This document shows positions 2,878-61,334 of a stretch of DNA of 64,000 nucleotides, piece by piece (the first letter of the stretch is position 1; every line of letters starts with the position of its first letter). This stretch comes from an uncultured Candidatus Saccharibacteria bacterium (GTDB lineage: Bacteria; Patescibacteriota; Saccharimonadia; Saccharimonadales; JAGQNK01): assembly GCA_964636355.1 (NCBI GenBank), contig CAZWRG010000003.1, forward strand, positions 793-64,792, given 5' to 3'. Below the pieces are notes generated by a model. It searched no databases and was not told the origin of the DNA. It was given only the letters and a program-made list of their open reading frames with translations. The position numbers were made by a program, and so were the translations under genes.

Positions 2878-4182
2878 ATGAGTGATGTAAAAATGGAAGA
2901 TATTGTTAGTTTGTGCAAACGCCGCGGGTTTATATACCAAGGCTCCGAGGTTTATGGTGGCTTAAGTGGCACGTGGGATTATGGTCCACTCGGCGTAATT
3001 CTTAAGAAAAACATCATGGACCTATGGTGGAAGACATTTGTCGAAGACCGTGATGATATGTACGGAATAGACGCTGCGATACTGATGAACCAGAAAACCT
3101 GGCAAGCCAGCGGCCATGTCGATACATTTACAGATCCGCTGGTGGAGTGCAGTAACTGTAAGGGACGTTTCCGCGAGGACAAAATTGATACCAGTAAATG
3201 CCCGAATTGTGGCGCTAAAAATCCTTTTGGGCCAGCTCGCCAGTTCAACATGATGTTCAAAACAAGTGTGGGACCGGTTGATGATGAGAGCTCCATTAGT
3301 TATTTACGCCCAGAGACTGCTCAAGGAATTTTTACCAATTATAAAAATGTCGTCGATAGCTTTTACCCTGACGTGCCGTTTGGTATTGCCCAAATCGGCA
3401 AAGCTTTTAGAAACGAAATCAGCCCGCGTGATTTTGTGTTCCGCTCGCGTGAGTTTGAGCAGATGGAAATTGAATATTTTATCCATGAAGATAACTGGCA
3501 AGAGCTGTTTGAACAGTGGCGTAAAGCTATAAAGGCGTTCTTAAAAGACGGTCTTGGTCTGCCAGAAAATTCCGTGCACGAGCTGGAGGTGCCGGATGAT
3601 GACTTAGCACATTACAGCAAGCGCACAATTGATTATGAATTTGATTATCCGCATGGTAGGGATGAGTTGCTTGGTCTTGCGTATCGTACTGATTTTGATT
3701 TGAAAAACATCGAGCGGGTGAGTGGCAAGAGCATGGAATATCGGCCAAAAGATGGCGGCAAGTCATTTGTACCGCATGTAATTGAGCCTAGTTTTGGCGT
3801 AGAGCGAGCTCTCATGGCGGTGCTAGTCAGTGCCTATGCAGAGGACGAACAAAACGGCGAAAAACGAGTCTTTTTAAAGCTACCGGTGCATTTAGCTCCC
3901 CAAAAAGTGGCGGTTTCGCCATTGCTCAAAAACAAGCCAGAGTTGGTTGAAAAGGCCCGCGAAGTATACACGGCGCTCAAAAAAGAGTTTGGCAATGTGA
4001 TCTGGGATGACAACGGCAATATTGGTAAGCGTTATCGCCGCCAGGATGAAATCGGCACACCGCATTGTGTAGTGATTGATTTTGACACACTAGAAGACGG
4101 CACAGTGACCGTCCGTGACCGCGATACCACCGAACAAAAACGCGTAAAAATCGACGACCTCGCAGCCCTCATACATAATTAG
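2878..4182 (+). CDS. glyQS: Glycine--tRNA ligase (dimeric class II GlyRS)
   Basis: CKRRGFIYQGSEVYGGLSGTWDYGPLG N-terminus, FRNEISPR motif 2 region, C-terminal anticodon-binding domain. TATAAT at 2860-2865. Confidence 0.9.
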   Translation: MSDVKMEDIVSLCKRRGFIYQGSEVYGGLSGTWDYGPLGVILKKNIMDLWWKTFVEDRDDMYGIDAAILMNQKTWQASGHVDTFTDPLVECSNCKGRFREDKIDTSKCPNCGAKNPFGPARQFNMMFKTSVGPVDDESSISYLRPETAQGIFTNYKNVVDSFYPDVPFGIAQIGKAFRNEISPRDFVFRSREFEQMEIEYFIHEDNWQELFEQWRKAIKAFLKDGLGLPENSVHELEVPDDDLAHYSKRTIDYEFDYPHGRDELLGLAYRTDFDLKNIERVSGKSMEYRPKDGGKSFVPHVIEPSFGVERALMAVLVSAYAEDEQNGEKRVFLKLPVHLAPQKVAVSPLLKNKPELVEKAREVYTALKKEFGNVIWDDNGNIGKRYRRQDEIGTPHCVVIDFDTLEDGTVTVRDRDTTEQKRVKIDDLAALIHN

Positions 4183-10200: not shown

Positions 10201-11190
10201 TTGAACGACTCAACAGAGCCTCAGGAAACTGATATTTTTTTATGGACTAATCAACTGGTGCAAATAAAAGAAGAATTAGACATTGAATTATTTTTGTTCA
10301 ACAAAAATTACGTGGTTTATAAATCTCAGCTTAGCAAGGATCTGCGCCGGCAGCTGGAGCCGCTATTGATTGATAATATTTTGGAATTTGTGCTGGATGG
10401 CGCCGAACAGGGAATGGTGGTGCGAGGTTTTGAAGAGGCCGAAGAAGAAAAAAATGTGCTTCAAAAAACCCGGCTTAGTAATGTCGAAAATGCCAAAATG
10501 GTGTTGAACTGGCTAAAGACCCAGGAGCATGAAATTGAAGTTTTTGTAGAAGAAGAGCATGATTTTAAACGCATTAAGGGCTTGGTTGCCCGGTGTAGTC
10601 ACAAAGAATTAGACAAGCGGTTTTATGTTATAAAGGCTCTGCCGCAATCGCTTATTATGAAGGGCAGCGCCGGCTGGATGCTCAAAAATGGCAAATTTGT
10701 GCCGTTTGACGCCGAGGGCGCGCTTAGAATTCCGGCTGATAACCAGCTGCTGATAATCGATCAAGACATTTTTGTGTTCAATCAATCAAAATTATCGACT
10801 CTTTTTGGTTATGACGCCAAAAAATATACCATCGCTGAACAAAAAATGAAGCTCATCTCAGAAAATTTCAAGCTGAATGTCAATCAGGAAATGTCGATTG
10901 AAGAAATGGTCAAAGGCAAAAAGAGCTTAGTGAACAAGCTCCAAAAACTCGACCCGACAGGTGTTAAGCAGGAGGATTTGATTAGTCATGCCGAGGAGCT
11001 GGATCTGCCATTAATGACTGATGACAGCGGCGCGATTATTATTATGGACGGCAAAGATCTGGATGTCTTTGTGAATTTACTCAATCAAGATTATATGGAG
11101 TCGCCGCTGACCGGCCAACGATTTGAAATTAAAAGCAAACGACCGCTCAAACCGGCTGATGAAGACGATTTGTTAAAACAAGTTCTTTAA
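10201..11190 (+). CDS. Uncharacterised 329-aa cytosolic protein (size and layout reminiscent of DUF4868/KwaB; unverified)
   Basis: TTG start 7 nt after GGAG. No TM. Mixed alpha/beta sequence with an acidic tail. 42 nt upstream of the Pif1-type helicase. Confidence 0.5.
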   Translation: MNDSTEPQETDIFLWTNQLVQIKEELDIELFLFNKNYVVYKSQLSKDLRRQLEPLLIDNILEFVLDGAEQGMVVRGFEEAEEEKNVLQKTRLSNVENAKMVLNWLKTQEHEIEVFVEEEHDFKRIKGLVARCSHKELDKRFYVIKALPQSLIMKGSAGWMLKNGKFVPFDAEGALRIPADNQLLIIDQDIFVFNQSKLSTLFGYDAKKYTIAEQKMKLISENFKLNVNQEMSIEEMVKGKKSLVNKLQKLDPTGVKQEDLISHAEELDLPLMTDDSGAIIIMDGKDLDVFVNLLNQDYMESPLTGQRFEIKSKRPLKPADEDDLLKQVL

Positions 11191-13642: not shown

Positions 13643-14917
13643 ATGAACGAAAACAGTAACGAAAATGACAGGATTTTTCCTAGGAACTTTTTTTGGGGCG
13701 CCAGTACAGCGGCTCATCAGGTAGAGGGTGGTCTGGTAAATCAGTGGTCAGTGTGGGAGCTGGAGAACGCTAATCAGCTGGCCCAAACTGCCCATCAACG
13801 GCTTGGTTATTTGCCGGCCTGGAATGAATTTAAGTCCCAAGCTGAAGATCCAGACAACTATGTTTCTGGCCGCGGGGTTGATCATTTCAAGCGCTATAAA
13901 GAAGATTTTGATATCATCGAAAAATTAAATCTAAATAGTTTTAGATTCGGGATTGAGTGGGCGCGGCTTGAGCCTGAGGAGGGCAAGTGGGATGACCGGG
14001 CGGTTGAACATTATCGAGCCTATATAAAAGAACTGCGCGGTCGCGGCATTGAACCGTTTGCGAATATTTGGCACTGGACAATGCCGACCTGGTTTACTGA
14101 TAAAGGCGGCTTTAGGCACAGAAGTAATTTGCAGTATTTTGAGCGTTTTGTTCAGAAGATCGCCGACGAATACGCTGATGATTTGACTTACATCATCACG
14201 CTTAATGAGCCGAATGTGTACACCAGTTTTAGCTACGTTATTGGCGAGTGGCCACCCGAAGAAAAAAGCATTTTAGCGGCCCGGGTCTACAGGAATTTGG
14301 TCGCTGCTCATAAAAAAGCTTATAAAATTCTAAAAAAGAAAAAACCGACACTCCAAATTGGGGTTGCCGCTCAGCTGGCTAATATTCAGGCCAAGCGGCC
14401 GCATAATTTATTCGATCAAATATCAACCAAATGGATGCGCTATTATTGGAACTGGTGGTTTTTGCTCAGAATAAAACGCCATCAAGACTACGTTGGTTTC
14501 AATTATTATTTTACTGATTATTATACCGGCTGGTTTAAGCGAGCTAACCCCAGGGTGCCAATGAACGACTTGGGCTGGTATATGGAACCGGAGGGTTTAT
14601 ATCCGTTGCTATTGCGAATTCATGCTCGGTTTAAAAAGCCAATTTTTGTGCTTGAAAACGGAGTGGCTGATGATTCTGATGACTATCGTCGTTGGTGGAT
14701 CGAAGAAACAATAGTAGCCATGCAGCGGGCGCTTAGCGAAGGCGTAGACCTAAAAGGCTACATGCACTGGAGCTTGCTAGATAATTTTGAATGGAAATAC
14801 GGCTGGTGGCCAAAGTTTGGTCTGGTTGAAGTTGACAGGGAGCATGACATGAAACGAACTATCCGCCCAAGCGCCAAGTGGTTTGCCGAAAGAATTCAGA
14901 ACATTCGCAAATCTTAA
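13643..14917 (+). CDS. Glycoside hydrolase family 1 beta-glucosidase
   Basis: FFWGASTAAHQVEGG. Acid/base TLNEPNV. Nucleophile VLENGVAD. Confidence 0.85.
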   Translation: MNENSNENDRIFPRNFFWGASTAAHQVEGGLVNQWSVWELENANQLAQTAHQRLGYLPAWNEFKSQAEDPDNYVSGRGVDHFKRYKEDFDIIEKLNLNSFRFGIEWARLEPEEGKWDDRAVEHYRAYIKELRGRGIEPFANIWHWTMPTWFTDKGGFRHRSNLQYFERFVQKIADEYADDLTYIITLNEPNVYTSFSYVIGEWPPEEKSILAARVYRNLVAAHKKAYKILKKKKPTLQIGVAAQLANIQAKRPHNLFDQISTKWMRYYWNWWFLLRIKRHQDYVGFNYYFTDYYTGWFKRANPRVPMNDLGWYMEPEGLYPLLLRIHARFKKPIFVLENGVADDSDDYRRWWIEETIVAMQRALSEGVDLKGYMHWSLLDNFEWKYGWWPKFGLVEVDREHDMKRTIRPSAKWFAERIQNIRKS

Positions 14918-15474: not shown

Positions 15475-15486
15475 AATTGTGGATAA
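15475..15486 (+). promoter_or_regulatory. AATTGTGGATAA 12-mer containing a perfect DnaA-box 9-mer
   Basis: TGTGGATAA is the complement of TTATCCACA. The identical 12-mer recurs at 26536-26547. Confidence 0.4.
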
Positions 15487-15528
15487 CTGGTCAAGTTTTT
15501 GGTGTTAATTAGCTTAAAAGACTTGCAA

Positions 15529-16521: not shown

Positions 16522-17430
16522 ATGTCAGACACCAAAACAAACAACCAAAATCATTCTAATCAACATTTTCCAGTCCTTTTGGACGAAGTTCTTGATTATC
16601 TCCAACCTAAGGAAGGAGAATCGTATTTGGACTTAACAGCCGGATACGGGGGACACGCCGAAAAGATTCTGGAACGTACCTTACAACCAAGCAATTCTAC
16701 TTTAGTAGATCGCGATCAAAACGCAATTGCGGTTTTAACGCAAAAGTTTTCAGGCGGTGGCGCCCAGATAATTCACAAAGATTTTTTGGGAGCAAGCCAG
16801 GAGCTTTTGGCGTCAAGCCGACAATTCGATATGATTTTGGCTGATTTGGGGGTATCGTCACCGCACCTTGACAATGCAAGTCGTGGGTTCAGTCTCAAGA
16901 TAGATGGTCCGCTGGATATGCGCATGGATCAGACACAAAGCGTAACGGCCGAAATTATAGTTAATAGCTATAAGGAGGAGGAGTTGCGTGACCTAATCCG
17001 GCGTTATGGCGAAGAGCCGCGAGCTGGGAAAATTGCTCGTCTTCTGGTAGAAAACCGTCCAATTAAGACCACGCATGAACTTGCAAAAATCGTCGCCCAA
17101 GCTTGGCCGGGGCGTAGCAAAGTTCATCCCGCAACGCGAACCTTTCAAGCGCTTCGCATAGCGGTAAACAAAGAACTTGATCAGATTGAGCAAGCTTTGC
17201 CGATCTGGATTAATTTGCTGGCCCCCGGAGGGCGAATAGTGGTTATCAGTTTTCACAGCCTGGAGGATAGGATTGTGAAACAGCAGCTTAAAGAGCTGGC
17301 TGGTAATCGCTACGACGCCGTCCTGCAGCTGTTAACTAAACAGCCTGTAGTGGCTGGGCCGGATGAATTAGTTTTTAATCCGCGAGCGAGGAGCGCAAAA
17401 CTTCGAGCCGCAGCAAAACAAAAATCGTAA
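16522..17430 (+). CDS. rsmH: 16S rRNA (cytosine1402-N4)-methyltransferase RsmH
   Basis: HFPVLLDEVL, DLTAGYGGH, LADLGVSSPHLD and ISFHSLEDRIVK motifs. Confidence 0.9.
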   Translation: MSDTKTNNQNHSNQHFPVLLDEVLDYLQPKEGESYLDLTAGYGGHAEKILERTLQPSNSTLVDRDQNAIAVLTQKFSGGGAQIIHKDFLGASQELLASSRQFDMILADLGVSSPHLDNASRGFSLKIDGPLDMRMDQTQSVTAEIIVNSYKEEELRDLIRRYGEEPRAGKIARLLVENRPIKTTHELAKIVAQAWPGRSKVHPATRTFQALRIAVNKELDQIEQALPIWINLLAPGGRIVVISFHSLEDRIVKQQLKELAGNRYDAVLQLLTKQPVVAGPDELVFNPRARSAKLRAAAKQKS

Positions 17431-17619
17431 TCACCTAAAAAGGGTGGTTGCACAAAAAGAAAGGAAGAGGCATGCCAATTACGGTTAAAAACCTCTCCCG
17501 CGCATACAAGGTAAAAGTTCGAGTCGTTTAAGACTTGATCGCCAAGTATGAAGCAGCCTGTGCCCCAGTAAAATGGGGCATGGGACAAAGAAAAACCAAA
17601 ATAAAAACAAATATAAAAT

Positions 17620-26535: not shown

Positions 26536-26547
26536 AATTGTGGATAA
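26536..26547 (+). promoter_or_regulatory. Second copy of AATTGTGGATAA (perfect DnaA-box 9-mer)
   Basis: Identical 12-mer to 15475-15486. Lies about 175 nt upstream of the minus-strand gene starting at 26365. Confidence 0.4.
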
Positions 26548-26592
26548 ATATTTAATTATTTTATAAGCGGAAGCTTAGCTTTTGGCGAAGAT

Positions 26593-27165: not shown

Positions 27166-29478
27166 TTATTTTTTGGTGGTTTTGCGGCGAGTAAAGCGCT
27201 TTTTAGCAGCCGGCGCTTCAGCGAGTAATTTTTTGGCCTGTTCGTGGGTGATGTCTTTAGGTTCGGTATCTTTGGGGATTTTGGCATTCTTTTTGCCATC
27301 GGTGATGTACGGGCCATAGCGTCCTTTGAGGACTTTTATACCGTCGCCAAAATCAGCAATGTTCTTTTCTGCTTCAGCCTGAAGCTTAGCCTCATAGAGG
27401 TCACGAGCTTCGGCTAGCGTAATGGTATGAGGATCGAGCGGCTTAATGCTTGCAAAGAGTTTATCGACTTGTATATAAGGACCGAACCGACCGATGTTGG
27501 CTTTGATATCTTTGCCATCTGCAGTTTGACCGACCAAGCGAGGCAGTTCAAAGGCTTTGAGGGCCTGTTCAATTGTAACGGTTTCTATCTTGGTGCCGCG
27601 TGGCAATGGCGCAAACTGCGGCTTGTCGGTATCGTCTGTCGCGCCGAGCTGAAGCATTGGTCCAAACCGGCCAAACCGTGCCAAAATTGGTTTGCCAGAC
27701 TTGGGGTCAATGCCGACTTCGCGTGACTGCCCAACGGTTGAGCGGTCGATTCCGCCAGATTTTTCTATTAGTTCATGGAACGGTGTGTAAAACTCATTTA
27801 GCATCTTATTGCGATCGAGTTTGCCGGCTGCTATCTGGTCAAATTCTTCCTCTACGTTGGCAGTAAAATCGTAATCTACTACTTGGTCAAAGTGGTTATT
27901 AAGAAAGTCGCTGATGAGCTGTCCGCTGGCCGTTGGCACTAGTTTGCCGCGATCAGAGCCGGTTTTTTCTTGAATAATCTCTCTGTTAACGGTGTTGTTC
28001 TGTAGATTTAGAACAATCACATCCCGCGGCGTGCCTTCGCTCTCGCCTTTTTCGGCGTAGCCGCGTACCTGCACAGTATTAATGATAGTGGCGTAGGTCG
28101 ATGGACGGCCAATTCCGAGGTCTTCGAGTTTTTTGACCAAGCTACCCTCGGTATAACGAGCCGGTGGCTTGGCAAAGATCTGTTTGGCGGTGGCTGATTG
28201 CAACTCTAGACTGTCGTTGACAGTCACTGCTGGCAGGATATCGGGATCTTTTTTGCTGGCTCCATACACTTTGAGGAAGCCATCAAACACAATGACTTCA
28301 CCTTTGGCTTCAAATGTTTCGGCTTGACCGGATATTGCTATAGTGACAGTGGTTTTCTCGAGCTTGGCTGATGCCATTTGGCTGGCTAGCGTGCGCCGGC
28401 GAATAAGATCATAGAGTTTCTGGTTATACTCGTCGCTGCTGGCCTTTTCGGCGCTGATATTTGTGGGGCGAATGGCTTCATGAGCTTCTTGGGCGCTGGC
28501 AGATTTGTTTTTAAAGGTTCTAATTTGATGATACTCTTTGCCAAATGCTTCGGTGACGTAATTTGTGATTTGTGAAAGTGCTTGCCCGCTCAAGACAACA
28601 GAGTCGGTACGCATGTAGGTGATTTTTCCCTCTTGGTAGAGTTTTTGGGCGGCCGACATGGTAGCTTTGGCGCTAAAACCGAGGCGGGCGTTGGCTTCCT
28701 GTTGCAGGGTGCTGGTGGTAAACGGTGCGCTGGGGTTGCGCGTGCCAGGACTAGTGACAACGTCGGTTACCGTAAATGTTTGACCAACAAGGCTTTCTAG
28801 GAAAGCCTGTGCTTCTGCTTCGGTTTCGAAACGTTTTGGTAATTCGGCTTTGAGTAAGCCATCATCTGTGCGGAATTCAGCCGTCACCTTAAAAGTAGAT
28901 GAGCTTGCAAAGGCGTCAATTTCTCGTTCGCGCTCCACCAGAAGCCGCACAGCTGGTGATTGGACGCGTCCGGCAGATTTGCCGCCTGGGACCTTTTGCC
29001 AAACGACTGGGCTGAGTTCAAAACCGACAATACGGTCCAGGATTTGTCGTGCTTGCTGAGCTTGGACGAGGTTCATATCGACGGTACGCGGGTTTTTGAT
29101 AGCTTCTTCGATAGCGCTCTTTGTGATTTCGTGAAATACAATTCGTTTAGTGGTTTTTGGGTCGAGTCCGAGCACCTCGCACAAATGCCAGGCAATCGCC
29201 TCTCCTTCGCGGTCTTCATCAGTTGCCAGCCAGACTTGTTCGGCTTCGCGAACGGCTTTTTTGAGTTCAGTAATGACCTTTTTCTTCTCTGGATCAATTT
29301 CGTAGACAGCCTTAAAGCCATTTTTGACATCGATAGCGTCGCTGCCGTCCTTGGTCTTTTTGGCGATTGACCGAATATGACCAACACTTGAAAGCACCTT
29401 AAAATCACTACCGAGATATTTCTCGATAGTCTTGGCTTTGGCCGGGCTCTCAACTATTACTAGATTTTTTGCGCTCAT
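27166..29478 (-). CDS. topA: DNA topoisomerase I
   Basis: TOPRIM N-terminus LVIVESPAKAKTIEKYLG, ATDEDREGE, active-site region ITYMRTDS. Zn-finger-less C-terminal repeats with a Lys-rich tail. Confidence 0.92.
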   Translation of the reverse strand: MSAKNLVIVESPAKAKTIEKYLGSDFKVLSSVGHIRSIAKKTKDGSDAIDVKNGFKAVYEIDPEKKKVITELKKAVREAEQVWLATDEDREGEAIAWHLCEVLGLDPKTTKRIVFHEITKSAIEEAIKNPRTVDMNLVQAQQARQILDRIVGFELSPVVWQKVPGGKSAGRVQSPAVRLLVEREREIDAFASSSTFKVTAEFRTDDGLLKAELPKRFETEAEAQAFLESLVGQTFTVTDVVTSPGTRNPSAPFTTSTLQQEANARLGFSAKATMSAAQKLYQEGKITYMRTDSVVLSGQALSQITNYVTEAFGKEYHQIRTFKNKSASAQEAHEAIRPTNISAEKASSDEYNQKLYDLIRRRTLASQMASAKLEKTTVTIAISGQAETFEAKGEVIVFDGFLKVYGASKKDPDILPAVTVNDSLELQSATAKQIFAKPPARYTEGSLVKKLEDLGIGRPSTYATIINTVQVRGYAEKGESEGTPRDVIVLNLQNNTVNREIIQEKTGSDRGKLVPTASGQLISDFLNNHFDQVVDYDFTANVEEEFDQIAAGKLDRNKMLNEFYTPFHELIEKSGGIDRSTVGQSREVGIDPKSGKPILARFGRFGPMLQLGATDDTDKPQFAPLPRGTKIETVTIEQALKAFELPRLVGQTADGKDIKANIGRFGPYIQVDKLFASIKPLDPHTITLAEARDLYEAKLQAEAEKNIADFGDGIKVLKGRYGPYITDGKKNAKIPKDTEPKDITHEQAKKLLAEAPAAKKRFTRRKTTKK

Positions 29479-29657
29479 GCTTTTATCACGTTACAGGTAT
29501 TAATTATCAATTGCAACTTTGAGATACAGATCCTTAAGTTAAATCTGTCCTGGCAAATACTTATGCAGCTAAGCCTGGACAATTAGCAATGCGCCGATTC
29601 GGCACAACAGGAAGTAAGACTATAGAGTTAGGGGCGTGGAGTCAATAGTTAATTTGT

Positions 29658-30026
29658 GCTTGAGGATTCTCCGGTAGCCTTCTTAAGCAAGCCCCTATTG
29701 CCTGCGGCCTCCTGGCCGCTGAGGCAAGCTACCTTTTCCATTCGGGGAAAAGGTAGCCCAAAAGCCGACAGGCGACTGTCTATTCTTGAAACGTCTGTTG
29801 TCAAAGACCACAATGCGGTAAGACGTTCCGCTAGCGCTGCTCAGTCTTCCGCATACTATTGTGGCTTTGACTAACATCCGTATCAGGAATAGCCAGAGCC
29901 TGAGGGGAAACTATGCAGCGACTCAGTCGCTGCTATTAATTAAATAGCGAGGCTTATGCCCCCGCTAGTATCCCTACAGGCTCTATTTAGGCAAAGGTTG
30001 AAAGCTTCCTGAGGTCAGACCTCAGG
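29658..30026 (+). ncRNA. Candidate structured RNA of unknown class, antisense to the flanking genes
   Basis: Helices at 29658-29688 (9 bp, 2 G.U valid only on +), 29704-29719, 29728-29757 (12 bp), 29801-29870 (nested), 29895-29984 (multibranch) and 30008-30026, then a T-rich tail. Confidence 0.4.
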
Positions 30027-30086
30027 TGGTCTTATTGGTTTTGGATAACTGCTTGTTGGATCAAAGAGGTATCGGATATGAGGTTT
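30005..30086. repeat. Copy A of an ~80-nt repeated intergenic element
   Basis: CTTCCTGAGGTCAGACCTCAGG is identical to 49864-49885. Further blocks (TTATT, TGCTT, TCAAA(G/A)AGGTAT, GATGAGG) are shared. Confidence 0.7.
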
Positions 30087-30122
30087 ACTGTTGTTATTTT
30101 AGATAGCGAGGAAATGTGACAT

Positions 30123-30980
30123 TTAGCAGATGGTCCAGTGGTTGGCGCCGGTGGAGCGGATTTTGCCAGTAATTTCCATCATCGTCAGTGTTTGATTAAA
30201 TGTAATGGCGTCTAGTTTACTATGACTCAGCAGAAGATTGCCCTCAGTTATTCCCTCTTTTAAGAGTTGTATAATTGCCTCTTCTTCAGCGTTAGCGGCC
30301 AGTGTTTGAACTATCTCCAGCTGCTCGCCAATGCCCAGCTCATTAAAAATATCTTGAGCAGAGGTTACAACAGAGGCGCCGGTTTTAATCAGATTATTGG
30401 TGCCGCGTGATAAGTTGCTGGTTATATTTCCTGGCACGGCCATAACGGTTTTACCCTGATCAAGCGCAAAGCCGGCAGTGTGCAGAGTGCCGCTTTTCTC
30501 CGCAGCTTCAGTTATTAATACTCCGCTGCTTAGACCAGAGACTAGCCGATTGCGGGCTATAAAGTGTGGTCTGAGCGGCGGCGTGCTTTCCGGATATTCG
30601 CTAATTAACGTTCCACCTTCCTCTAAGATCCGCTTGGCTAGTTGGCGGTTGGTGGAGGGATAGGGCTTGTCCAACCCGCATGGCAACACAGCGATAGTTC
30701 GGCCGCCGGCGTCCAGCGCGGCCTTATGGGCAATAGCATCGACCCCTAGCGCCAAGCCGCTGATAATTACTATGCCCTTCGCGGCTATTTGACTGACTAA
30801 ATCTTCAGTTACGCCCCTTCCATATGGTGTGACTTTGCGGCTGCCAACTACAGCTAACGAGTTGCTTTCATGAAGCAAATCGATGCTTCCGATCACGTAG
30901 ATTTCACCTGGCGAGTCTGGGATTCTCCGTAGATTTTCGGGAAAATGTACCGATTTTGAGCTGATTTTTTGAATTTTCAT
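30123..30980 (-). CDS. dprA: DNA processing protein DprA (Smf)
   Basis: VVGSRKVTPYGRGV ... SGLALGVDAIAHKAAL ... GTLHTAGFALDQGK Rossmann-like DprA core. Confidence 0.85.
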   Translation of the reverse strand: MKIQKISSKSVHFPENLRRIPDSPGEIYVIGSIDLLHESNSLAVVGSRKVTPYGRGVTEDLVSQIAAKGIVIISGLALGVDAIAHKAALDAGGRTIAVLPCGLDKPYPSTNRQLAKRILEEGGTLISEYPESTPPLRPHFIARNRLVSGLSSGVLITEAAEKSGTLHTAGFALDQGKTVMAVPGNITSNLSRGTNNLIKTGASVVTSAQDIFNELGIGEQLEIVQTLAANAEEEAIIQLLKEGITEGNLLLSHSKLDAITFNQTLTMMEITGKIRSTGANHWTIC

Positions 30981-31119
30981 ACCCTAGCCCCTGATTATTT
31001 GGCATATAACAGATTGAATAATCTGAACTTCAAGTATTTAACCTGCTTAAATACTAATGCTTTTAACTGCGTTTTACAATGATTTTATAGCTAAAACTGG
31101 ATAAAAAGTCCAAAAGGTA

Positions 31120-31147
31120 TTGACAAAGATAATATTTTTGCTAAAAT
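31120..31147 (+). promoter_or_regulatory. Strong promoter TTGACA-N16-TAAAAT (TGc extended -10) with no ORF behind it
   Basis: TTGACA at 31120-31125 and TGCTAAAAT at 31139-31147. Downstream sequence is non-coding and highly structured. Confidence 0.55.
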
Positions 31148-31337
31148 GACAACTTGTAATTACTGTAATGGTATTTACGCACCTTATACCCCTATTCTAA
31201 CATCTCGCTTATGCGAGATTTAAGTTAGAGTGTTTTAGAACGGCTACGTAAGTTGTTACCCTCCACTTATCTTAGCGGTGCCATTTCTCTTTTGGGAAAA
31301 GCGGCAACGTTCTAAAACATACTAACCCCTTTAACTT

Positions 31338-31632
31338 CCCGCACCTTTTAGCGGTATAATCGACGTATGTATTACGTCTACTTGCTAAAAAGTGAGGCTA
31401 CCAATAAATGGTATATAGGCTGTACAAGTGATCTGCGACGTCGATTAAATGAGCACAACAGATCAAAAAGTATTTCAACAAAAAGTGGAATACCTTGGAA
31501 GCTAATGTACTATGAGGCTTTTCCGACCGAGCAATCAGCTCTGCGACGAGAGCAGAAGCTCAAGCATCACGGAAAAGGACTTAGCGAACTGAAGCGACGC
31601 ATTATGCTCGGTTGATCGCTAAAAGGTGCGGG
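31338..31632 (+). repeat. Perfect 16-bp inverted repeat bracketing the GIY-YIG ORF
   Basis: CCCGCACCTTTTAGCG (31338-31353) and CGCTAAAAGGTGCGGG (31617-31632). The right arm starts 2 nt after the stop codon. Confidence 0.9.
31367..31615 (+). CDS. Stand-alone GIY-YIG (URI-domain, YhbQ/COG2827-like) nuclease, 82 aa
   Basis: YYVYLLKSEATNKWYIGCTSDLRRRLNEHN ... E(x)KLK pattern. TATAAT at 31355-31360 lies 6 nt before the ATG (leaderless-type). Confidence 0.8.
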   Translation: MYYVYLLKSEATNKWYIGCTSDLRRRLNEHNRSKSISTKSGIPWKLMYYEAFPTEQSALRREQKLKHHGKGLSELKRRIMLG

Positions 31633-32073
31633 ACCCGGTTCAAAGTGAGTACGTCAGGTATGCTCAGTCTGTCTGAGCGGCGCGAGTCTTTATGGAGTTT
31701 GGACATCGACGCTTACACTCGGGTGGGTTGAAGGGTATTACGGAGCTAATGCTTGCATTGGCTCCTGAAAAACGGTCTTCGAGCGGTGCCCACCCCCTCT
31801 CGGAGGCCGTTTTTCAGTTTATGCCCAGCCACGTTTCGCGCTCACATCCTGCGAGCCCAACTTCAACTTACTTGGGACAAGCCCCAAAACAGTTGATAGT
31901 TCTTGCGGTGAGTTACTGACTCACCTCACCCGAAACTTCATCTATGAAAACAAGTTTTCAAGAAAAGATTTCCTTGCATCATGCCACTGGCATGCTTCAC
32001 CCTCTGTGAGCTCTTTTTATTTTTTGACAAAAAGCGTTGCCTAGACCATAAAAAGTGATATAGTGCCAATAGT

Positions 32074-32385
32074 ATGATTGAAGATTATGAAGCAAGGTGT
32101 TTTAGGCTTGACACAGATGAAGCGTTTAGATTGAAAGCCGACAGAATGGAGATCCCTTTCAGAGAAGCGCCAGGGTTTCTCGCGTGGGTTCAATACAGAC
32201 AGGCTCTAAATGAGGAGATAGACCCTAGTGTTTACCCTTCAGGGGCTGATAAAAGCCACGTTGTGCAACGACAGATCACCGATCGAGATCTATTCGCGGG
32301 CATTATAGATATTTTGGAGCCGCACGTCGCCCCTTCAATCGCTAAAGGCGCAGAGTTATTGTTGAGGTCCCAGACAGATAGCTAG
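32074..32385 (+). CDS. Hypothetical protein
   Basis: 103-aa ORF. Its 3' end overlaps the convergent pth by 4 nt. Confidence 0.4.
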   Translation: MIEDYEARCFRLDTDEAFRLKADRMEIPFREAPGFLAWVQYRQALNEEIDPSVYPSGADKSHVVQRQITDRDLFAGIIDILEPHVAPSIAKGAELLLRSQTDS

Positions 32386-36268: not shown

Positions 36269-36310
36269 CTATACTAAAAACGTGTCCGATCGGACATGTT
36301 TTTAGTATAG
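36269..36310 (-). terminator. 42-nt near-perfect palindrome (terminator-like) after the response-regulator gene
   Basis: CTATACTAAAAACGTGTCCGA / TCGGACATGTTTTTAGTATAG with one G.U. Its core resembles the palindrome at 61289-61334. Confidence 0.5.
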
Positions 36311-49808: not shown

Positions 49809-49863
49809 GGTTGATATTTTATCAAAACAGAGGTGAAATTGCGAATATCATAAATTACTCAAT

Positions 49864-49944
49864 CTTCCTGAGGTCAGACCTCAGGATGGGTTATTTTATG
49901 TTATAATTTTTTGCTTAATCAAAAAGGTATGAGGGATGAGGCTT
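49864..49944. repeat. Copy B of the ~80-nt repeated intergenic element
   Basis: The 22-nt block with hairpin CCTGAGGT-CAG-ACCTCAGG is identical to copy A. Roughly 70 percent similarity by eye over the rest. Confidence 0.7.
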
Positions 49945-50009
49945 GGGGGATGCGAGCTACCGAAGCTGGGCTTGAGAGCCGGTGCAAATTAGTCAATATT
50001 AAGATGCTT

Positions 50010-61018: not shown

Positions 61019-61108
61019 TGGCGGAGAGAGAGGGATTCGAACCCTCGAGGCGGTTGCCCGCCTACACACTTTCCAGGCGTGCCAGTTCAACCACTCCTGC
61101 ACCTCTCC
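61019..61108 (-). tRNA. tRNA-Ser (anticodon GGA), class II, CCA encoded
   Basis: Read on the minus strand: acceptor GGAGAGG/TCTCTCC, anticodon loop CTGGAAA, long variable arm, T arm GAGGG-TTCGAAT-CCCTC, then GCCA. Confidence 0.88.
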
Positions 61109-61288: not shown

Positions 61289-61334
61289 AAACATTCTCAA
61301 AAAGTGTCCGGCCGGACACTTTTTGAGAATGTTT
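61289..61334. repeat. Perfect 46-nt palindrome (23-bp arms) in a divergent intergenic region
   Basis: AAACATTCTCAAAAAGTGTCCGG / CCGGACACTTTTTGAGAATGTTT. The core GTGTCCGNNCGGACA is shared with 36269-36310. Confidence 0.85.

Follow-up and report, generated by a model that had tools for sequence, protein, structure and literature searches.

What is the strongly folded DNA that separates topA from dprA in an uncultured Candidatus Saccharibacteria bacterium? The locus lies in a stretch of 64,000 nucleotides, called the window here, in which the two genes, both on the minus strand, are separated by a gap of 644 bp (29479-30122) that runs from the dprA stop codon to the topA start codon. In an initial annotation the gap was proposed to hold a large ornate non-coding RNA (ncRNA), read from the opposite strand to its neighbours. 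The analysis described here leads, with moderate confidence, to a different answer: the folded stretch represents one member of a family of intergenic repeats of Saccharibacteria, which are probably mobile but not autonomous, measure 450-770 bp, are built as a mosaic of hairpins and are comparable to miniature inverted-repeat transposable elements (MITEs), BIME and BOX.

The minimum free energy (MFE) of the gap was -243.2 kcal/mol (z -10.4) when the + strand was folded and -231.5 kcal/mol (z -9.2) for the - strand; shuffled sequences never reached these values. In a GC-corrected 300-nt sliding scan of the whole 64 kb, 29701-30000 was the top outlier on both strands (z ~-6). The dense structure described initially was thus borne out, with z ~-10 on both strands for the most structured stretch of the window, and every helix listed at that time was found in place. 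All three full copies of the element are extremely structured, the two others, L087 and L055 (see later paragraphs), having z values of -15.7 and -11.1 respectively.

Two open reading frames (ORFs) in the gap, 29656-29874 (+) and 29695-29877 (-), had been set aside as translation noise. Both exist, and a Pfam search of three gap ORFs matched no family. The longest ORFs are of 72 aa in the window copy and 119 aa in L087, and the frames are not kept between copies. Nothing was matched by tblastx of the gap against the dprA-topA gaps of relatives, or when concatenated translations of the element ORFs were compared with a collection of 5.8 billion proteins. Coding is ruled out because two single-base indels, seen between the window copy and L087, break the most conserved 75 nt. 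These results support the view that the gap does not code for protein and is structured to an exceptional degree. A decayed protein-coding gene, or an accumulation of palindromes by chance without function or mobility, might be envisaged, since the dprA-topA gaps of relatives hold many different small ORFs, making decay there plausible, and the window has ORFs of 60-72 aa on both strands. This explanation is, however, most improbable. Apart from the empty tblastx and Pfam searches and the frame-breaking indels in the conserved core, it would not lead one to expect a fold at z -10 or the pair-preserving divergence described below, and homologous copies at other loci cannot be due to chance.

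Searches for known RNA families were carried out on the gap and its homologues. Rfam at gathering score gave no match relevant to the gap in the whole window, and nothing relevant was found in L087, L055 and the loci of 14 relatives; RNase P, tmRNA, SRP, 6S, OLE, GOLLD, ROOL, HEARO, raiA, group I/II introns and riboswitches were all without a match at the gathering threshold. At E<=10 on 29400-30200 only chance-level matches were obtained (E 0.76-7.4). The chance matches of the Rfam searches taken together, which were to a CRISPR repeat, a miRNA, a snoRNA and a BMV pseudoknot, were rejected. ARAGORN detected neither tRNA nor tmRNA in the gap. The lack of RNase P, tmRNA and SRP hallmarks noted from the letters of the sequence holds in these scans as well. 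Blocks of 70-80 nt conserved in the gaps of relatives were considered as tRNAs and ruled out by ARAGORN.

Is the structured block a property of the dprA-topA locus? The syntenic sample consisted of 80 topA loci (L002-L081), the five closest dprA loci (L082-L086) and nine cobA loci. The window TopA is of 770 aa, and its best 80 relatives are all metagenome-assembled genomes (MAGs) of Saccharibacteria, with 75-82% identity. Adjacency of dprA and topA is widespread in Saccharibacteria, with a gap of 42 to ~3900 nt, in many cases of 60-150 nt, and the larger gaps of relatives are occupied by unrelated small ORFs. With blastn, nhmmer, tblastx and covariance models, the element sequence was not found at the dprA-topA gap of the 80 genomes. 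None of the five closest dprA loci matched it either, their gaps being 97 nt in L085 and L086, ~240 nt in L082, and 458 nt with an 81-aa ORF in L083 and L084. The closest DprA in the 5.8-billion-protein collection is only 72-75% identical, and therefore there is no close sister genome. Across the 80 topA, 5 dprA and 9 cobA loci the orthologous sites are without the element, with the sole exception of L089, which has a copy behind a duplicated 3' end of cobA. A promoter-like motif common to the relatives, within ~60 nt of the topA start, would place the structured block between the dprA stop codon and a putative topA promoter. The structured block in the dprA-topA gap is thus an insertion and not a conserved leader.

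A cis-acting part of the dprA-topA unit, i.e. a dprA 3' untranslated region or terminator, or a topA leader or regulator, would be read on the minus strand. The position between two co-oriented genes is in keeping with such a role, as are a terminator-like hairpin on the minus strand (29967 to 29945, followed by TTTAATTAAT) and the presence in some relatives of a conserved ~220-nt palindrome-containing stretch upstream of topA. It is nevertheless very unlikely: the closest relatives are without the element in the same gap, where 97 nt suffices; homologues stand beside unrelated genes in both orientations, those of L087 and L089 adjoining cobA; the putative topA promoter motif lies outside the element; and no riboswitch or leader family was matched. 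Both this cis-regulatory role and the dead-gene or chance explanation are largely excluded. Separately, the interval between dprA and topA stands out in Saccharibacteria as a hypervariable hotspot, with many unrelated hypothetical ORFs, one of 1224 aa in L010. In L032 (~3710-3991), L041 (~3712-3991) and L057 (~3700-3986), 220-250 nt directly upstream of topA are 80-87% conserved and contain a palindrome with a 13-bp stem, CAGTTGCGCAA...TTGCGCAACTG, which is unrelated to the element and possibly an operator or a terminator.

Copies of the element were found at other loci. A translated metagenome search with six degenerate probes from the spurious 72-aa ORF located L087 among the matches listed; further copies may exist beyond these. 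In this Saccharibacterium, represented by at least one metagenome contig, a 773-nt non-coding block directly follows cobA. Window 29730-29936 matches it in reverse orientation (78% over 211 nt), and 29723-29778 matches a second place in it in forward orientation (93% over 56 nt). The 5.8-kb contig L055 carries two copies. Copy 1, of 549 nt, lies 13 nt past the topA stop codon and is matched at 25 bits by R2, a covariance model of hairpin C, linker and hairpin D (Table 1). Copy 2, at the start of the contig, was detected by BLAST as 223 nt at 80% identity. In L089 the copy is cut by the contig end, and 26 nt of the C hairpin of L055 are identical there. Two of the copies (L055 copy 2 and L089) are thus at contig ends; contig breaks at repeats are typical of assembly. 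The window has a second, partial copy in which only the right end module is present: 30002-30086 and 49861-49944 are 74% identical over 86 nt, and 49890-49931 matches the C hairpin of L087 (81%, E 3e-4). It lies 52 nt upstream of gltX (start 49808) and 65 nt downstream of a gene with a DUF4367 domain (stop 50010). The copies are therefore dispersed: their loci are unrelated, both orientations occur, and the distance to a stop codon is 4-65 nt. Two lie on the L055 contig, and one full and one partial copy in the window.

Weak R2 matches in L048, L081 and L007 were rejected as copies, the pattern of their differences looking like that of a conserved coding stretch. These linker-plus-D-like (AGCCAAAAAACAACAGGCGATTGTTGC-like) matches are at 99-141 in L048 and 206-248 in L081, ~3.8 kb upstream of topA in both, and at 1883-1926 in L007, ~2.1 kb upstream. 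A further observation concerns L089, where the last 40 nt of cobA are repeated 3.6 kb downstream with 92.5% identity (10533-10572 and 14143-14182). Between the repeats lies an island that includes nitroreductase and YcaO genes, so that they look like the att sites of an integrated island; the element copy starts directly after the second repeat.

Sites with and without the element were compared at three loci, the empty ones being L028, L088, L090-L093, L085 and L086. At the cobA locus, L088 and L090-L093, with near-identical CobA, have 78 nt from cobA to the next gene as against the 773-nt block in L087, and in L088, whose cobA is 98% identical to that of L087 in nucleotides, 33 nt are present in place of the element. 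The empty counterpart of L055 copy 1 is L028, with a flank 91% identical, in which CTCGTTACTTTTGATTAAC corresponds to CTTGTTACTTTT, 549 nt and GTTACTTTTGATTAAC of L055. GTTACTTTTG occurs once in L028, whereas L055 has GTTACTTTT, 549 nt and GTTACTTTTG, with a 9-nt overlap of the BLAST pieces; L055 copy 1 is thus flanked by GTTACTTTT as a direct repeat of 9 bp. GTTACTTTTG also borders the right end of L055 copy 2, and the similar GTTTACTGTTG borders the window copy.

The anatomy of the element was deduced from its homologues. In the orientation of the window, a full copy runs B, C, linker, D, a variable interior, inverted linker and inverted C' (Table 1). An inverted module of C and linker is present at both ends of all three full copies, although the two are subterminal and only 60-75% alike, that of the window is decayed and the outermost termini are imprecise. 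In the window copy, C' is the decayed inverted hairpin GATAACTGCTTG/CAAAGAGGTATC with 10 of 12 pairs left, and the right end module gave a weak R2 match on the minus strand (30032-30075, 11.6 bits). The design of B and the place of its bulge are common to L087 (in two versions), L055 and L089, with different stem sequences. Hairpin C varies from 10 to 12 bp across copies and was matched by R2 twice in L087 and in L055; its core ACC-TTTT/AAAA-GGT is conserved, and the pairs at its base and top covary. The GCGA loop of D is kept in both L087 versions, in which the stem changed from G-C to A-U. In E, the upper 75 nt are ~95% identical between the window and L087 while the neighbouring helices drifted, and the lower stem covaries (TATTC/GAATA against GGCTC/GAGCC). 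The interior is made of E and F in the window and L087, and of other long hairpins in L055; L087 and L055 share an additional long hairpin with the motif GAGGACTGTCTGAG...GAGTTCC. CAAAGCCACAATAGTATGCGGAAGACT and CATACTTTTGCCAGTAGCTGCAAAAG are conserved words of the element. No counterpart of the left arm was found by BLAST in other copies; the sequence GTTAATTTG at 29648-29656 within it bears a weak likeness to the GTTACTTTT target.

Hairpin H had been described as a terminal hairpin followed by T-rich sequence. The hairpin is present, but it is not a stand-alone terminator: it is part of the end module of ~85 nt that is repeated at 49861-49944, and the T-rich tail after 30026 is interrupted (TGGTCTTATTGGTTTTGG). 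Putative bidirectional terminators of the same genome look different, for example AAAAAGTGTCCGGCCGGACACTTTTT at 61289-61334. That palindrome and another at 36269-36310 are near-perfect over 42-46 bp and have a common design, A5-(C)GTGTCCG / CGGACAC(G)-T5; with this design they resemble intrinsic terminators that act in both directions. Their stem word GTGTCCG occurs 8 times in the window where 3.5 matches would be expected, which is no clear enrichment. The right end also contains, at 30040-30048, a version of the DnaA box with one mismatch, TTTGGATAA. The perfect DnaA-box word TGTGGATAA is contained in AATTGTGGATAA, which occurs twice in the window (15475-15490 and 26536-26551).

Table 1. Features of the element copies in the window and of the flanking genes, in window coordinates.
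Feature	Position	Strand	Description
topA	27166-29478	minus	Toprim, Topoisom_bac and Toprim_C_rpt domains
Left arm	29591-29697		Small hairpin 29593-29603; domain A stem 29629-29635/29691-29697 around hairpin 29657-29666/29680-29689, the latter with 2 G.U pairs (MFE helices)
Module B	29698-29727		Two-tier hairpin TTGCCT-GCGGCC-tcct-GGCCGC-tg-AGGCAA with a 2-3-nt bulge on the 3' side; inner helix GCGGCC/GGCCGC at 29704-29719, lengthened by TTGCCT/AGGCAA
Module C	29728-29757		Perfect 12-bp hairpin GCTACCTTTTCC/GGAAAAGGTAGC, arms 29728-29739/29746-29757
Linker CCAAAAGCC	29758-29766		Adjoins C in all copies; complementary to the linker GGTTTTGG of the other end (from alignments)
Module D	29767-29780		Hairpin GACAG-GCGA-CTGTC; GNRA loop when the + strand is read
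Module E	29781-29891		Long hairpin of 111 nt, including the nested hairpin 29800-29871
Module F	29892-29992		Three-way junction closed by AGAGCCTG/CAGGCTCT (29895-29902/29977-29984), with two internal hairpins, GCAGCGAC/GUCGCUGC and AGCG/CGCU
Right end module	30002-30086		Hairpin H, linker GGTTTTGG (30038-30045) and C' (30046-30075)
Hairpin H	30008-30026		Within the right end module
GTTTACTGTTG	30085-30095		Abuts the right end; resembles GTTACTTTTG bordering both L055 copies (similarity only)
dprA	30123-30980	minus	PF02481
Second, partial copy	49861-49945		Right end module only: hairpin H (CCTGAGGTCAGACCTCAGG), degenerate linker, degenerate C'

Are the helices kept when the sequence changes? 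Base pairs were compared between homologous copies, with 2-4 sequences in each comparison. In E-F of the window and L087 (61 pairs), 100% of the cells are paired and 13 pairs changed on both sides, as against 0-1 in slid controls. Helices 1-5, i.e. module E, have all cells paired, and in helices 6-9, i.e. module F, 9 pairs changed on both sides and none was broken. In C-D of four copies (17 pairs), 91% of the cells are paired and 7 pairs changed on both sides (slid controls 0-2). Helix 1 contributes 12 pairs, of which 6 have both sides changed, with 97.9% of its cells paired. Between the right parts of the two L055 copies, 11 of 66 pairs changed on both sides. Overall, hardly any pair was broken. 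In these comparisons the helices are thus kept by compensatory changes, as those of an independent structured ncRNA gene would be. Such pair-preserving change shows that hairpin formation matters, be it in RNA or in single-stranded DNA. Hairpin-templated correction of quasi-palindromes could also add pair-preserving change.

The same helices were examined for a preferred strand. The window copy folds with 10 G.U pairs on the + strand against 5, and with an extra closing stem of 15 bp on the +. Across copies, G.U as against A.C was 5/7 in B-C-D (A2), 2/5 in E-F (A3) and 18/6 in the right parts of L055 (A8), with forward/reverse alifold values of -30.6/-28.3, -75.0/-85.5 and -63.8/-63.7, respectively. 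L087 as a whole folds at -317 kcal/mol in the orientation opposite to the window + strand and at -299 kcal/mol in it. The assignment to the + strand had been made from two G.U pairs; there is no consistent asymmetry of G.U and A.C across the copies, and E-F folds better reversed, so the call of a + strand RNA is unsupported. The helices are symmetric between strands, which DNA palindromes would be expected to show. A promoter shared by the copies was not found, and neither G.U excess, promoter nor terminator defines a transcribed strand of the kind an ncRNA gene would have. Only two features hint at an RNA in one particular orientation, namely the GNRA loop conserved in D and the U-rich tails of the right end.

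These data bear on the main, though tentative and rather doubtful, alternative, namely a horizontally mobile gene for a large structured ncRNA of a new ornate class, which would ride on mobile DNA as GOLLD, ROOL and HEARO do. Such a gene would be read on the window + strand, would end near hairpin H and would have the fold as its functional product. The pair-preserving change of all variable helices in the three comparisons above fits this proposal. The conserved GCGA loop of D, with its compensated stem change, is GNRA on the + strand only, and the additional G.U pairs and the 15-bp closing stem of the window copy are on the same strand. U-rich tails follow the last hairpin in + orientation in the window and in both L055 copies, and the E core is ~95% identical in two distantly related genomes. 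The strand signal is however not consistent, L087 folding better in the opposite orientation, and the copies have no promoter in common. The closing stem takes its 3' arm from the end module that is repeated. The E-F interior is absent in L055, so that there is no RNA core common to the family and the ends alone are shared. Hairpin-templated correction, or selection on hairpins of single-stranded DNA, can yield pair-preserving change too. Of the ornate ncRNA proposed at the outset, a non-coding and structured sequence of no known family with helices that are kept stands, whereas its strand is not supported, nor is a single RNA gene at this locus: the sequence is absent from ~85 syntenic gaps, recurs at unrelated loci, and has inverted ends and empty sites.

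The preferred reading, a hairpin-mosaic repeat, draws on the dispersal of the copies, the pair on one small contig and those at contig ends, the empty sites at three loci, the inverted ends with their hairpins, the 9-bp repeat at a recurring T-rich motif, the closeness to stop codons, the absence of coding capacity and the strand symmetry of the helices. It was compared with known systems. MITEs such as Correia/NEMIS of Neisseria, bcr1 of the Bacillus cereus group and ERIC/IRU of enterobacteria are likewise small, non-coding and intergenic with inverted ends. Like them, the element has a flanking direct repeat, documented once, varies in presence between close strains, occurs more than once per genome, has a strong predicted fold and lies near gene ends; with copies of ~450-770 bp it is also short (<~800 bp) and without a transposase or other conserved ORF. 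Unlike most MITEs, it is much larger and more ornate, each of its ends is itself a hairpin and not a plain terminal inverted repeat, and its interior is a mosaic of independent hairpins diverging by compensatory changes; it has no known parent insertion sequence and its copy number appears low. With the REP/REPIN/BIME elements (RAYT, HUH Y1) and the pneumococcal BOX (boxA-boxB-boxC) it has in common a mosaic of palindromic units in both orientations, a place directly past stop codons, hairpins kept while the sequence drifts, and hairpin ends readable by a single-strand-specific enzyme. REP units measure 20-40 nt and number in the hundreds, their 5' tetranucleotide is conserved, and the genomes that carry them have a RAYT gene; unlike REPINs, the element has the long unique interior domains E and F and a possible 9-bp duplication, which REPINs do not make.

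The PATEs derived from IS200/IS605, and the omega-RNA region, resemble the element in having subterminal hairpins at both ends and no transposase, and the PATEs, which insert 3' of a fixed tetra- or pentanucleotide, also in a short conserved TTAC-containing motif, seen at the L055 junction (GTTAC|TTTT). IS200/IS605 elements have neither inverted ends nor target duplication, unlike the element with its inverted end modules and 9-bp direct repeat, which in addition has no match to HEARO or other Rfam families and no tnpA or tnpB nearby. With the large ornate RNAs (OLE, GOLLD, ROOL, HEARO, raiA) it shares a size of several hundred nt, many covariation-supported helices, lack of translation, and a patchy occurrence in variable genome regions. 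It matches none of their covariance models, however, and has no core common to all copies, no evident strand or promoter, inverted end modules and empty sites. The element is thus best filed as an unusually large and ornate member of the structured non-autonomous intergenic repeats.

How would such an element move? A transposase supplied in trans would recognise the hairpin ends, and the element would land a few to a few tens of bases past stop codons, at T-rich GTTACTTTT-like sites, leaving a 9-bp direct repeat on insertion. The design of a hairpin within each end would suggest a single-strand enzyme of the HUH type (IS200/IS605 or RAYT kind), while the 9-bp repeat would suggest a DDE cut-and-paste enzyme instead. 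Among the ORFs examined in the 64 kb there is no RAYT or Y1 transposase, and within 870 kb of collected sequence there is no autonomous element with the same ends. The window copy itself, with its decayed right end, is most likely a passive, very stable structured spacer between the dprA stop codon and the putative topA promoter, although it may stop or stabilise the dprA transcript.

Several results weigh against a mobile repeat of this type. Only 4-6 copies are known in total, and the 9-bp direct repeat was seen at one of them, L055 copy 1. The motif is present at the right end of the second L055 copy as well, so it may be an end carried by the element or a preferred target and not a duplication. 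No clear direct repeat was found around the window copy, and the outer boundary of its left arm is imprecise, falling between 29600 and 29657. No transposase with matching ends was found, and none of the ORFs examined near either window copy is a transposase gene. BLAST against phage and plasmid collections gave no match, and exact-pattern and translated scans of viral contigs were all empty. The dense pair-preserving divergence of the interior hairpins exceeds the neutral decay expected of ordinary MITE copies, the E core is near-identical in two distant genomes, and the GNRA loop of D is conserved; taken together, these features could mean that the interior works as RNA. A more specific proposal along these lines, which we regard as improbable, is that the element acts as the carrier of a large structured RNA that would define a new class in bacteria of the Candidate Phyla Radiation (CPR), with the covarying interior (E-F, or the other hairpins in L055) being expressed. 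By analogy with omega or bridge RNAs, the product might be a guide or scaffold for a recombinase or nuclease encoded in trans; alternatively, it might be a self-propagating parasite at the RNA level, with the hairpin ends serving its own mobilisation.

A few other features were recorded in the window. The second-strongest folding outlier of the + strand (z ~-3) is at 17100-17600, comprising the 3' end of mraW and a 580-nt gap to the next gene. The 1.4-kb interval between dprA and pth (30981-32381) has only small + strand ORFs (75-103 aa). It contains a hairpin with 22-nt arms at 31765-31817 and is moderately structured at 31100-31500 and 31700-32000 (z ~-2.6); in relatives, the same interval has small genes on the opposite strand or ~840 nt of uncalled DNA. 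ARAGORN identified a tRNA-Ser(GGA) on the minus strand at 61019-61108, where the Rfam tRNA model was silent at gathering score.

Saccharibacteria and other CPR bacteria have tiny, streamlined genomes in which, by the usual account, repeats and mobile DNA are scarce, and no paper was found that deals with MITEs, structured RNAs or palindromic repeats of Saccharibacteria or CPR. A family of hairpin mosaics of 0.5-0.8 kb moving among loci and distant genomes would, if true, be a new source of genome plasticity in these organisms. It would also explain some of the contig breaks in MAGs and give a handle on the enzyme that moves it. For scans directed at ornate RNAs the element is a caution, as extreme fold scores, and even compensatory changes, can stem from mobile palindromic DNA. 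Should the interior be expressed, a phylum that has hardly been explored would gain a large structured RNA of a new class.

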